From NCBI GenBank assembly GCA_015370545.1, contig GCA_015370545.1_3932.1: a stretch of 64,000 nt of DNA; one strand, 5' to 3'. Below, in pieces: positions 57,549 through 59,265 of the stretch. The notes under the pieces are model-generated. The model saw only the letters and a program-made list of their open reading frames with translations. It searched no databases and had not been told where the DNA came from. The position numbers and the translations under genes are program-made. Within the stretch, counting starts at the first letter, position 1. The number at the start of each line of letters is the position of its first letter. This DNA comes from a phage.

Positions 57549-58013
57549 TTACTTTGGATATACACTGTCAAGATAAATGTCAGCTTCCATTCTACGTCTG
57601 TTTTTCAGACCGTTTGAAGTGACCTTCTTACCTTTGACTGTAACCTTGTTCCACCACTGCATAGCTTCTGCACAACCTACCTTATTACCAGCATTGTGGC
57701 GCTTGATAAATGTGGAATCCTGCATAGCTGTGATACCGATGTTGTATGTTTCACTTACAAGTGCATCGAACTCATTCTGAGTAGTTGGAACCTTGATAGC
57801 TTTGTTCACTGCTGCAACAAACTTCTCAACATCCGCGAGAAGATACTGTTCAGCTTGTTCAGCGGTGATTTTCATTCCCATCTTAACAGGTTTTCCGTCA
57901 ATACGGATTGTACCATACCCGATTGTTGGGATTCCGGCAGAGTCTTCGTAAGCCTCTAACTCCAGACCTTCGAAGAACTTAATAGCTTCTAAACCTTTTC
58001 TTGAGAGTTGCAT
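57549..58013 (-). CDS. endolysin, lysozyme (GH24 / T4-lambda lysozyme family)
   Basis: 154 aa; FEGLELEAYEDSAGIPTIGYGT catalytic-region pattern. Confidence 0.85.
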   Translation of the reverse strand: MQLSRKGLEAIKFFEGLELEAYEDSAGIPTIGYGTIRIDGKPVKMGMKITAEQAEQYLLADVEKFVAAVNKAIKVPTTQNEFDALVSETYNIGITAMQDSTFIKRHNAGNKVGCAEAMQWWNKVTVKGKKVTSNGLKNRRRMEADIYLDSVYPK

Positions 58014-58897
58014 TATGCCTCCCCTGCTGGGTTAACTGTAACTGTTGCCGCATTAGATGTTACAGAGCCACCTGCACCAGTAACTACACAAGTGTAGCTT
58101 CCTGCATCAGAAGCAGTTGCACCTTCTTTGGTGTAAGTTGCAGCAGTTGCGTCTGGGATGACTTCCTCACCTTTCTTCCACTGATAACCTGTTGCACCAG
58201 TTGCAGTCACTGCTAAATTGATGTTTCCACCTTCATTAATGGTCTGATTAGAAGGTTGCTGTGTAATCACAGGCAGCGCGTTCACAGTAACTGTTGCTGC
58301 ATCTGAGGTGACACTTGTTCCACCATCTCCAGATACAACACAAGTGTATGAACCAGCGTCAGAAGGTGCTACGGATTGTTTTGTGTAAGTTGCAGAAGTG
58401 GCACTAGAGATGTCCTCACCATCTTTCTTCCACTGATAACCAGTGGCATTAGATGCAACAACACTCAGAGTAAGAGTTCCACCTTCATTGACTGTTTGGT
58501 TTGTTGGTTGCTGAGTGATTGATGGTGGTGTGATGGCATCTTTCAACTTAGCATTCAACATTGAGAACGGCTTAACTCTTGCCAACCATTCACAGTAAAT
58601 TGTGTCAACATCTTTACCGTTGATGATTGCATACTGTAAATCCATGAAGAAATCAGCAGTTCTCATCTGTGCACCAACACTGTAAAGGAGTTCATCACTA
58701 AAAGGAACTTTGTAGTCTGGTTTGTAGTCAAACTTCTTAACTTCTGCGATATCAGCTTCAGGCCAATATGAGCTATAGGTGAGTGGTAAAATAGCTTCTT
58801 GATATGTTCTAAAATCATATCTCTTACCAGCCTTTACATTTGCGATGAAGCCCTTCACAAATTCTTTGAAGTCTGGGTAAGTCTTTGCTTTAATCAT
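58013..58897 (-). CDS. protein with two Ig-like domains
   Basis: 294 aa; N-terminal domain paralogous to next ORF; two tandem repeats TQQP(T/S)NQT(V/I)NEGG..L.V.A...TGYQWKK...AGSYTCVV.G. Confidence 0.55.
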   Translation of the reverse strand: MIKAKTYPDFKEFVKGFIANVKAGKRYDFRTYQEAILPLTYSSYWPEADIAEVKKFDYKPDYKVPFSDELLYSVGAQMRTADFFMDLQYAIINGKDVDTIYCEWLARVKPFSMLNAKLKDAITPPSITQQPTNQTVNEGGTLTLSVVASNATGYQWKKDGEDISSATSATYTKQSVAPSDAGSYTCVVSGDGGTSVTSDAATVTVNALPVITQQPSNQTINEGGNINLAVTATGATGYQWKKGEEVIPDATAATYTKEGATASDAGSYTCVVTGAGGSVTSNAATVTVNPAGEA

Positions 58898-59265
58898 TTC
58901 TTTTTAGCCTCTAAACGTGCGTTTAATCTAAAATAGCCTTTATGTTGTGGAGACACATCACCAACAACGATACCTTCAACTTTATAACCTTTACCGATTA
59001 CATACTGGATATCCATAAGAAATGTACCAAGTCCTACAATGTGGAACATTGGATATAATAACTTATCTGAATCTGGGAGATTAATATCTGGGTTGTAGGT
59101 AGGTTGTTTACTAGTAGGTGTAATATCTTCTTCAGGCCATTTACTTAGTCTCCATGTCAAAGGTGTTGGGATAACATCATTAAGATTGTACCTCCCACCA
59201 TTCTCCACGGAGCGGATATAGGATTGTAGGAAGCAATAAAAGTCTTTTGCACTCTTAGCCTTCAT
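58894..59265 (-). CDS. hypothetical protein, paralogue of the Ig-like protein N-terminal domain
   Basis: 123 aa; aligns with residues 1-120 of 58013..58897 (FMDLQY motif shared). Confidence 0.5.
   Translation of the reverse strand: MKAKSAKDFYCFLQSYIRSVENGGRYNLNDVIPTPLTWRLSKWPEEDITPTSKQPTYNPDINLPDSDKLLYPMFHIVGLGTFLMDIQYVIGKGYKVEGIVVGDVSPQHKGYFRLNARLEAKKK

Follow-up and report, generated by a model that had tools for sequence, protein, structure and literature searches.

The locus and its gene block

The window, by which we mean the whole 64 000-nucleotide stretch of phage DNA that was analysed, is a Felixounavirus genome with 90–96% identity to 253 Felixounavirus, Mooglevirus and related records. 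It contains the locus that serves hexamer decoration in a Felix O1-type (Ounavirinae) myophage, a block of three genes on the minus strand. Two of these, a short and a long open reading frame (ORF), had been described in an earlier note as a paralogous pair next to the endolysin, the longer copy bearing two Ig-like domains. This description holds: the two protein products share an N-terminal region of about 120 residues (36% identity over 121 residues, BLASTP E = 2e-16, with positions 1–119 of the short protein aligned to 2–119 of the long one), the 294-residue protein contains two Ig-like repeats (Pfam Ig_3, E = 2e-23, and Ig_2, E = 1e-19, with two stretches each) and its gene is adjoined by that of a phage lysozyme. 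The features of the locus, in which CapBD denotes the capsid-binding domain, are as follows.

59289..59304, minus strand: terminator-like hairpin with a T-run, 23 nt upstream of the start codon of the short gene (terminator scan)
58894..59265, minus strand: short gene, a 123-residue paralog consisting of CapBD only (PHROG 4463), corresponding to Felix O1 ORF37 and bas63_0125
58908..58912, minus strand: AGAGG Shine–Dalgarno-like motif for Hex-Dec, within the last codons of the short gene (read from the sequence)
58013..58897, minus strand: long gene, almost certainly the Hex-Dec ortholog, 294 residues, a Hoc-like protein that decorates capsid hexamer centres (phmmer, PHROG 3995)
58538..58897, minus strand: CapBD, Hex-Dec residues 1–120, with Arg79 and Arg107 (alignment to the modelled portions of 9NCF and 9C2D chain S)
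58277..58528, minus strand: Ig-like domain 1, residues ~124–207 (best Pfam Ig_3 stretch, 124–189)
58028..58276, minus strand: Ig-like domain 2, residues ~208–290 (best Pfam Ig_2 and I-set stretch, 209–288)
57549..58013, minus strand: endolysin, a GH24 lysozyme and the final gene of the three-gene block (PF00959, E = 4.5e-41; PHROG 7)
57522..57539, minus strand: terminator-like hairpin closing the short gene/Hex-Dec/endolysin block (terminator scan)

The short and long ORFs overlap by 4 nt (ATGA) and the long ORF overlaps the endolysin gene by 1 nt. In each of the 31 loci containing both genes, the short gene lies directly upstream of Hex-Dec with an overlap of 1–8 nt, and TTAGAGG together with the stop/start overlap is kept in every one of them, whatever the overlap length. 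The hairpin ahead of the short gene, whose stem is kept across genera while its loop sequence varies, is followed by an AAGGA Shine–Dalgarno-like motif. The hairpin that closes the block has a 7 bp stem with five G–C pairs and is followed by TTTTTATTTT. No motif conserved across genera was found between the upstream terminator and the start codon of the short gene, and σ70-like promoter hits in the region were not above shuffled controls (eight found versus 10.2 expected). Coordinate mapping to Felix O1 suggests that the gene for the capsid protein is not within the window.

One idea considered was a programmed −1 frameshift between the short ORF and Hex-Dec that would yield a fusion protein: slippage on AAAAAG in the junction GCT AAA AAG AAA TGA would lead into the frame of Hex-Dec. 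It was rejected because the slip motif is not conserved, being missing from the junctions of Mooglevirus, Suspvirus and a diverged 87 kb metagenome contig (L004), and because the overlap in Suspvirus sets Hex-Dec in another frame; what is conserved is the AGAGG motif and the stop/start overlap.

The long ORF and its place on the capsid

There is very little doubt that the ORF at 58013..58897 encodes Hex-Dec, the ortholog of Bas63 Hex-Dec and Sf14 gp20. In a phmmer search of PDB sequences, residues 1–290 aligned to 9ncf_S (residues 1–290 of that chain; E = 4e-246) and 9c2d_S (E = 3e-185), and the match to PHROG 3995 has an E value of 1e-169. Both this identity and the role of the N-terminal CapBD are already known. 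The earlier note had left the shared N-terminal domain unassigned, which is out of date, as it is a capsid-binding domain that has been built into the cryo-EM maps 9NCF (Bas63) and 9C2D (Sf14). Arg79 and Arg107, both present in the long ORF, are invariant among the distinct Hex-Dec orthologs (25/25). The CapBD of these orthologs is followed by one to four Ig-like domains; the two repeats found here are 70% identical to each other (E = 1e-37). The forms with one Ig-like domain (210 residues) were considered as frameshift truncations, an explanation that was discarded since five orthologs of 210 or 211 residues are in frame where the metagenomic protein P0053 shifts; P0053 itself is frameshifted, as a single case. 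A gene of the Hex-Dec type is located directly upstream of the endolysin gene in HMD-P10, Bas63, Felix O1, L004, FIfi106 and P778.

Cryo-EM of Bas63 and Sf14 revealed a T = 9 capsid in which a monomeric Hoc-like protein occupies the centres of the 60 facet-edge hexamers (PMC12609058, PMC11821841). In Sf14, Arg79 and Arg107 of gp20 are reported to be salt-bridged to the capsid protein at Asp221 and, according to the authors, one hexamer class stays empty because its Asp221 residues are shifted beyond the reach of these arginines. Mass spectrometry of virions detected both Sf14 gp20 and Felix O1 gp36 (ORF36), the equivalent of the long ORF. By analogy with Bas63 and Sf14, the protein encoded in the window would be expected at the same hexamer centres, with its CapBD (~120 residues) plugging as a monomer into the centres of the 60 facet-edge hexamers and being held there in part by an Arg79/Arg107–Asp221 pairing like that of Sf14. 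Its two flexible Ig-like domains would then project outward, where, on the model of T4 Hoc, they may mediate weak surface adhesion or particle aggregation; binding of carbohydrate or of the host surface has been proposed for them in the same vein.

Database records frequently label this protein, and PHROG 3995, as a 'tail protein'. We rejected this label: the matches to major-tail-protein PHROGs cover the Ig region only, and the Bas63 authors consider it to be a mis-annotation, their cryo-EM locating the ortholog on the capsid. The label is thus wrong in most Felix O1-like genomes, and the gene beside the endolysin encodes a Hoc-like capsid decoration.

The CapBD-only paralog

The short ORF encodes the anchor domain on its own and originated in an old tandem duplication. 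Residues 2–119 align to residues 3–119 of 9ncf_S (phmmer E = 1.7e-12) and the protein ends right after the CapBD; lacking Ig-like domains after the CapBD, it is not classed as Hex-Dec. In a phylogenetic tree, the short and long copies form separate clades with 100% bootstrap support each, and each clade contains a copy from L004, which keeps the pair (the short copy is 45% and the long copy 54% identical to that of the window). The tandem pair was seen only in Escherichia/Salmonella/Shigella/Citrobacter lineages and in L004. The CapBD family is very small, with 12 clusters at 50% identity in an exhaustive profile search of 1.84 billion representatives, which reached further than a word-index protein search, whose hits were all at least 67% identical. 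The region upstream of P0059 in locus L036 may hold a third, very diverged short paralog (hhalign E = 0.002, probability 14%; BLASTP E = 0.05). The Bas63 paper and the main text of the Sf14 paper do not discuss the short paralog (the word 'paralog' is absent from the former, and gp19 and gp21 are not mentioned in the latter), and our literature search on bas63_0125, WV8_gp042 and NP_944851 returned an annotation table only and no transcriptome data, the wV8 proteome paper being confined to the tail fibre.

The short gene is intact in about 233–237 of the 253 phage records. The length of its product is fixed at 122–124 residues across lineages that are only 45% identical to each other, and the 27 distinct intact proteins contain long invariant stretches. 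With a dN/dS of 0.13 (compared with 0.056 for the CapBD of Hex-Dec and 0.14 for Ig-like domain 1), the gene is under purifying selection. It is dispensable in some lineages, having decayed to a pseudogene in about 16–20 of the 253 records (~8%); in phage mio and locus L033, for example, the start codon and ~220 nt are gone. Decayed copies retain the last ~100 nt with the AGAGG motif. Truncated variants of the protein also occur (P0038, P0048, P0049 and P0051).

The earlier note had named structure prediction of the shared domain and virion proteomics as checks. An AlphaFold2 model calculated from eight close sequences was unusable (pLDDT 53.6); after distant family members were added the pLDDT rose to 82.6, and the resulting model matched the solved CapBD in Foldseek with a TM score of 0.80–0.82 (E = 1e-8), 9c2d_S and 9ncf_S being the only PDB matches, a result that is not fully independent of sequence homology since the alignment supplied to AlphaFold2 included Hex-Dec sequences. 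The short protein is thus predicted to keep the CapBD fold, and it showed no similarity to other families in Pfam, the PDB or BFVD. Short and long copies share 35 invariant positions and are distinguished by 41 clade-fixed differences. The latter affect both of the reported anchoring arginines: the position of Arg79 is Gly in all 27 short copies, and Gln, His or Asn takes the place of Arg107 in 25 of the 27. The loss of Arg79 is not proof of lost capsid binding, since this position varies in the wider CapBD family (Ser or Asp in the single-copy relatives P0058, P0060 and P0061). The net charge of the short protein ranges from −4 to +5 among orthologs and therefore provides no usable electrostatic argument.

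As for the virion, two published proteomes do not list the short protein. Shotgun mass spectrometry of Felix O1 virions lists gp36 and not the short ortholog gp37; for VpaE1, the main text gives gp54, gp58 and gp68 as the only proteins beyond the Felix O1 set, from which the absence of gp40 can be deduced. The Bas63 authors report no density on hexamers other than those occupied by Hex-Dec. Since a 14 kDa low-copy protein could escape the stringent proteomes of 2010 and 2015, absence from virions is unproven; the short protein is nonetheless unlikely to be a stoichiometric component of mature virions or a major virion protein. The suggestion in the earlier note that the pair forms a decoration or adhesion module thus stands for the 294-residue protein, the orthologs of which were located on capsid hexamer centres by cryo-EM and in virions by mass spectrometry, and is not supported for the 123-residue protein. 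A two-part decoration module is unsupported, because the short ORF has neither an Ig-like domain nor the anchoring arginines, its orthologs are missing from virion proteomes and no extra hexamer density was observed.

Taken as a whole, the locus is probably best explained as a Hex-Dec locus accompanied by a CapBD-only paralog with an accessory role, and we infer that this role is non-stoichiometric, dispensable and directed at the capsid. As a specific mechanism we tentatively put forward transient recognition of capsid hexamers, at sites or in states to which Hex-Dec does not bind. The short protein would recognize the centres of capsid-protein hexamers where Hex-Dec does not, for example in the prohead or on the flat three-fold hexamers, and would act transiently and dispensably in head assembly or in the loading of Hex-Dec rather than as a permanent decoration. 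We prefer this reading because it best fits a protein that has kept its fold, changed its interface and is missing from virion proteomes.

Several other roles were weighed. The short protein might be a second, fibre-less permanent decoration that caps either the 20 flat hexamers on the three-fold axes or some other site of low copy number on the capsid, the quasi-equivalent hexamers being shared out between the two paralogs. Its full predicted CapBD fold agrees with this idea, as do the shared gene block and the overlap of its stop codon with the Hex-Dec start codon, and so does the observation that Hex-Dec leaves exactly one hexamer class empty, that with Asp221 out of reach, while it is precisely the two arginines concerned that are replaced by clade-fixed residues in the short copy. 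At low resolution a protein without Ig-like domains would form no protrusion, and icosahedral averaging would smear out any monomer located on a three-fold axis. We nevertheless consider a second decoration unlikely, given that the Bas63 authors see no density on other hexamers, that gp37 and gp40 are missing from the virion proteomes of Felix O1 and VpaE1 and that phages with a decayed short copy are viable. It is similarly improbable that the short paralog is a site-specialized partner of Hex-Dec, that is, a fibre-less plug for hexamers of a class or maturation state to which Hex-Dec is unable to bind. The targets of such a plug would be the 20 flat three-fold hexamers or the skewed hexamers of the prohead, the tandem duplication would have split the recognition of quasi-equivalent hexamers between two anchor domains, and the published maps could have missed it through three-fold averaging and its small size.

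If the short paralog had a function away from the capsid, for instance as a partner of a host factor or as a decoy that diverts a host defence sensing the decoration protein, its CapBD fold would be no more than a scaffold. The 41 clade-fixed differences, including both reported anchoring arginines, are compatible with this, as are the faster evolution of the short copy relative to CapBD (in dN/dS as given above and in identity to the L004 copies, 45% versus 54–56%), its non-detection in virions and its dispensability in some lineages; accessory host-interaction genes are often dispensable. We regard such a function as doubtful in view of the strict linkage to Hex-Dec (all loci with the short gene show the stop/start overlap), the fact that the gene was never found without an adjoining Hex-Dec in the loci and look-ups examined, and the lack of any other similar family in Pfam, the PDB and BFVD. 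Least probable is a functionless leftover of the duplication, kept only for the ribosome-binding site of Hex-Dec in its 3′ end. The decayed copies that preserve this end and the truncated variants would be expected of such a remnant, but the dN/dS of 0.13 extends across the whole gene, and the intact frame, the constant length in lineages of only 45% identity and the 27 distinct intact proteins with their invariant stretches all speak against it.

The finding is largely ordinary, as the larger gene encodes a characterized Hoc-like capsid hexamer protein of Felix O1-type phages. The new part is the previously undescribed stand-alone copy of the capsid anchor, which is intact in roughly 230 sequenced phages. 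Should it bind another hexamer class or a prohead state, the pair would be a compact example of decoration proteins that discriminate between quasi-equivalent capsomers, and phage display on Felix O1-type capsids would benefit, with the anchor domain by itself as a possible tag. If the short protein has no capsid role, it would be one more phage accessory gene.

Comparison with known systems

The closest known counterparts of the long protein are Hex-Dec of Bas63 (Escherichia phage JohannRWettstein; 9NCF chain S) and gp20 of Sf14 (9C2D and 9C3A chain S), in which Ig repeats likewise follow an N-terminal CapBD that contains Arg79 and Arg107. They differ in the number of Ig-like domains, with four in Bas63, three in Sf14 and two here. 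The genomic slot is also the same, between the short paralog and the endolysin, and both genomes carry the upstream 123-residue paralog (bas63_0125 in Bas63).

T4 Hoc resembles the long protein in being a monomer at hexamer centres whose small capsid-binding domain carries several protruding Ig-like domains in a row, and in being non-essential with a proposed role in adhesion or aggregation. PHROG families annotated as 'Hoc-like head decoration' have their matches in the Ig part of the long ORF, and no Hoc-like similarity was detected outside this region (PHROG 2973 spans residues 121–292 only). Hoc has its capsid-binding domain at the C-terminus, whereas the long ORF has it at the N-terminus, and the Bas63 authors describe the CapBD of Hex-Dec as larger, topologically distinct and pseudo-two-fold symmetric. 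The long protein therefore works like Hoc but, with its N-terminal anchor and its PHROG matches confined to the Ig region, is not a member of the Hoc family. We know of no anchor-only paralog in T4. Membership of the T5 pb10 family was likewise rejected: the Ig domain alone aligns (residues 215–291 of the long ORF to 5lxk_A and 8zvi_a, from 5LXK and 8ZVI; E = 1e-11), and neither sequence searches nor Foldseek with the model of the short paralog returned the pb10 anchor domain.

Other Ounavirinae-like phages have single-copy relatives of the same CapBD family (profile E values of 1e-8 to 2e-4) in the same slot, between a phrog_4034-like protein and the endolysin. These include a 206-residue protein with a Big_2 domain in Erwinia phage FIfi106 (Kolesnikvirus), a 244-residue 'head outer capsid protein' in Yersinia phage vB_YenM_P778 and the metagenomic protein P0060, of 153 residues with a Lys-rich tail. 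In contrast to the pair described here, each consists of one gene, with another display domain or none attached to the anchor.

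The decoration locus and the identity of the long gene

The locus consists of three genes on the minus strand, listed here with the two hairpins that flank them.

59304..59289, (-) strand: upstream terminator-like hairpin, before the short gene
58894..59265, (-) strand: short ORF, 123 aa, overlapping the long ORF by ATGA
58013..58897, (-) strand: long ORF, 294 aa, with two Ig-like domains
57549..58013, (-) strand: endolysin/phage lysozyme ORF (PF00959, E 4.5e-41), starting 1 nt inside the long-ORF stop codon
57539..57522, (-) strand: downstream terminator-like hairpin, after the endolysin

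The short and long ORFs share an N-terminal domain (36% identity over 121 residues; BLASTP E 2e-16), and the two Ig-like domains of the long copy (Pfam Ig_3, E 2e-23; Ig_2, E 1e-19; I-set, E 2e-16) share 70% identity (E 1e-37). The earlier note, which described a paralogous pair adjoining the endolysin with Ig-like repeats on one copy, is accurate in all details. The 3.5 kb around the locus is matched at 80-96% identity by 253 phage records, nearly all of them Felix O1-like myophages (Escherichia, Salmonella, Shigella, Citrobacter). The gene order is the same in Felix O1 (ORF37, 123 aa; ORF36, 'tail protein', 294 aa; ORF35, endolysin) and Bas63 (bas63_0125, 0124 and 0123).

The long ORF matches chain S of 9NCF ('Immunoglobulin-like domain protein', 460 aa; E 4e-246) and of 9C2D/9C3A ('Putative tail protein', 372 aa; E 3e-185) in a phmmer search of PDB sequences, with residues 1-290 aligned end to end. 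These entries are capsid reconstructions of Bas63 (PMC12609058) and Sf14 (PMC11821841). The protein, named Hex-Dec in Bas63 and gp20 in Sf14, is monomeric and Hoc-like; a capsid-binding domain (CapBD), made up of its first ~118-120 residues, sits centrally in the facet-edge (pentamer-proximal) hexamers of the T=9 capsid and leaves the three-fold-axis hexamers free, and its Ig-like domains are flexible, without resolved density (PMC12609058, PMC11821841). Arg79 and Arg107 of gp20 form salt bridges to Asp221 in three of the six capsid subunits (PMC11821841); the long ORF has both arginines, as does every one of 25 distinct orthologs. MS found gp20 in Sf14 particles (PMC11821841), and the ORF36 product is listed in the whole-phage shotgun MS of Felix O1. 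The Bas63 authors regard 'tail protein' as a mis-annotation and report one to four Ig-like domains in felixounavirus Hex-Dec proteins (PMC12609058); the lengths in our fetched loci are 210, 294, 298, 377 and 460/461 aa.

We conclude with high confidence that the long ORF is Hex-Dec, with an N-terminal anchor seated in the centres of facet-edge hexamers and two Ig-like domains on display. The shared domain, left unassigned in the earlier note, corresponds to the capsid anchor in 9NCF and 9C2D. The locus observation is real, and the guess of a decoration module was correct for the long gene, an ortholog of Hex-Dec/gp20, which structures place on the capsid and MS in particles. The core of the finding was already known: publications of 2025 describe the long gene, the anchor domain it carries and where it sits on the capsid. 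What we found undescribed in the structure papers is limited to the anchor-only paralog: 'paralog' does not occur in the Bas63 paper (PMC12609058), nor 'gp19' or 'gp21' in the Sf14 main text (PMC11821841).

Expression context and neighbouring genes

The two hairpins enclose the three genes and no others; the structure of the upstream one is kept across genera with differing loop sequences, and an AAGGA Shine-Dalgarno-like motif follows it. A comparison across genera identified no conserved promoter upstream of the short gene, and sigma-70-like matches were not above shuffled controls. That the short gene and Hex-Dec share a block with the endolysin suggests, but does not prove, late expression. 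The sequence TTAGAGG lies 8-12 nt before the Hex-Dec start codon, within the last codons of the short gene, and is conserved together with the stop/start overlap, a layout that would fit either translational coupling or independent initiation of Hex-Dec. The junction (58894..58912, (-) strand) reads GCT AAA AAG AAA TGA. A -1 slip on AAAAAG, fusing the short ORF to Hex-Dec, was considered and rejected; Mooglevirus, Suspvirus and the metagenome contig L004 lack the motif, which is therefore probably incidental.

A 196-aa protein (59313..59903, (-) strand; PHROG 4034; no match in a Pfam search) is a constant neighbour of the locus. The order of a ~185-205 aa protein, CapBD gene(s) and lysozyme is kept in Felixounavirus, contig L004 and loci L035 and L038, and Erwinia phage FIfi106 and Yersinia phage P778 have an ORF of similar size in this position. 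The Felix O1 ortholog, ORF38, is absent from the Felix O1 virion proteome. Annotation shows no holin gene adjoining the endolysin; that of phage HMD-P10 puts the holin within the tRNA cluster. Two genes downstream of the endolysin is a 132-aa ORF (56708..57106, (-) strand), labelled 'D-alanyl-D-alanine carboxypeptidase' in some relatives. In the stretches 60976..62391 and 62557..63972 ((+) strand), a DUF2828/DUF7788 protein, which relatives label 'RNA-binding protein' or vWFA protein, immediately precedes eight clustered tRNA genes; the distant metagenomic locus L038 also has a protein with these domains close to its decoration locus, and P778 has an annotated 'RNA-binding protein' in this position. 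Downstream of the decoration locus, at a distance of ~5 kb, the diverged Ounavirinae-like metagenome contigs L004 (11510..12369) and L005 (8967..9826) encode a protein that matches Pfam Gad1 (PF25705).

The anchor-only paralog

The short ORF belongs to PHROG 4463, a family of unknown function (E 3e-78), and its residues 2-119 match the CapBD of 9NCF (E 1.7e-12) and 9C2D (E 2e-11). A tblastn search with it found 490 matching places in the 253 records, about 233-237 of which hold both an intact short copy and a Hex-Dec match. In all 31 fetched loci having both genes the short gene is directly upstream of Hex-Dec, overlapping it by 1, 4 or 8 nt. Pairwise dN/dS (Nei-Gojobori) comes to 0.13 for the short gene, against 0.056 for the Hex-Dec CapBD and 0.14 for Ig1. 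At the sequence level the short ORF is thus identified as a protein-coding gene, with purifying selection acting on it somewhat less strongly than on the Hex-Dec anchor.

The CapBD family is very small: among 1.84 billion representative proteins, searched exhaustively with a profile, it has 12 clusters at E up to 0.001. One 87-kb metagenome contig, L004, has a distant tandem pair (P0055, 122 aa; P0056, 298 aa) and repeats the gene order of the window (195-aa protein, short, long, lysozyme). A neighbour-joining tree separates short and long clades with 100% bootstrap each, and because each holds one copy from this contig, the duplication is older than the split from its lineage; the tree does not resolve the deeper branches. 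In locus L036, a distant gene for a CapBD plus Ig (P0059) is immediately preceded by a 141-aa ORF (1739..2164, (+) strand) that starts MLKAKQYDSFEEL…, as a CapBD would; its match to CapBD is weak (hhalign E 0.002 at 14% probability; BLASTP E 0.05), and it may be a second, very diverged anchor-only paralog.

Structure prediction for the shared domain, suggested in the earlier note and run on the short copy, returned the CapBD fold. The AlphaFold2 model (pLDDT 82.6, pTM 0.80) was built from a 14-sequence family alignment, eight sequences being insufficient. In the PDB, Foldseek matched it to 9c2d_S and 9ncf_S only (TM 0.80-0.82, rmsd 2.7-2.9 Å, E 1e-8), with no other match below E 0.4, and among predicted viral structures it matched its own family and no other. 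As these searches return the CapBD family only, the short protein is modelled as a complete, free-standing CapBD; the fold match is corroboration and not independent proof of homology, since the alignment included Hex-Dec sequences.

Between 27 distinct short proteins and 25 distinct CapBDs, 35 positions are invariant in both clades (the fold core) and 41 are fixed differently. The second half of the short copy (LLYPMFHIVGLG.FLMDIQYV.GKGYK…HKGYFRLNA) is near-invariant within its clade, so its putative surface appears constrained, in a manner other than that of Hex-Dec.

The short gene is decayed in one felixounavirus clade: in phage mio (L003, 2806..2998) and the same region of L033 the start codon is lost, with frameshifts and ~220 nt missing, and the last ~100 nt, including the Hex-Dec ribosome-binding site, are kept. 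Given this decay and the lack of an intact copy in about 16-20 of the 253 records, the gene is dispensable for isolation and plaque formation. Retention of the short ORF as a functionless remnant, for the sake of the downstream ribosome-binding site, is contradicted by its dN/dS and is very improbable.

Shotgun MS of Felix O1 listed ORFs 23, 36, 53-55, 57-59, 63, 64, 67-69, 73, 74 and 77, and ORF 49 was identified from a gel band; ORF37, the short gene, is absent from these MS-identified virion ORFs. For VpaE1, in which the short gene is ORF40c, 22 virion proteins are reported, and as the main text of that paper names only gp54, gp58 and gp68 beyond the Felix O1 set, gp40 was apparently not detected in virions, an absence deduced from the main text and not from the MS table. 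In the Bas63 map no density is reported on hexamers without Hex-Dec (PMC12609058), and it seems unlikely that the short protein, complete anchor though it is modelled to be, forms a permanent cap, without a fibre, on the 20 three-fold hexamers. At the position of Arg79 all 27 short copies have Gly; at that of Arg107, 25 of them have Gln, His or Asn. The absence of Arg79 is no proof of lost capsid binding, because this position holds Ser or Asp in single-copy relatives from the wider CapBD family. We also consider it unlikely that the short protein has a function unconnected with the capsid.

The most likely reading, held tentatively, is that the short protein would still target the hexamer centres of the capsid protein, in a state or at a site unused by Hex-Dec, and would bind transiently or sub-stoichiometrically. 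The facts at hand are a complete anchor fold, an old duplication, purifying selection, strict linkage to Hex-Dec, a re-fixed putative contact surface, non-detection in virions and dispensability. The paralog is a minor point of interest that lends itself well to experiment, for which the mio-clade phages are natural knockouts usable as controls.

Comparison with other decoration proteins

Other relatives have a single CapBD gene between a phrog_4034-like protein and the endolysin, with a C-terminal part that differs each time: a Big_2 domain in Erwinia phage FIfi106 (Kolesnikvirus) and a Lys-rich tail in a metagenomic phage. The single gene of Yersinia phage P778 (244 aa) is labelled 'head outer capsid protein'. 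With T4 Hoc, the long ORF has no homology outside the Ig region, PHROG Hoc-like matches covering residues 121-292 only, and the domain order of Hex-Dec is reversed and its topology distinct (PMC12609058). By likeness to Hoc, Hex-Dec may act in adhesion or aggregation (PMC12609058). The likeness lies in the way of working, and the long ORF is Hoc-like in function.
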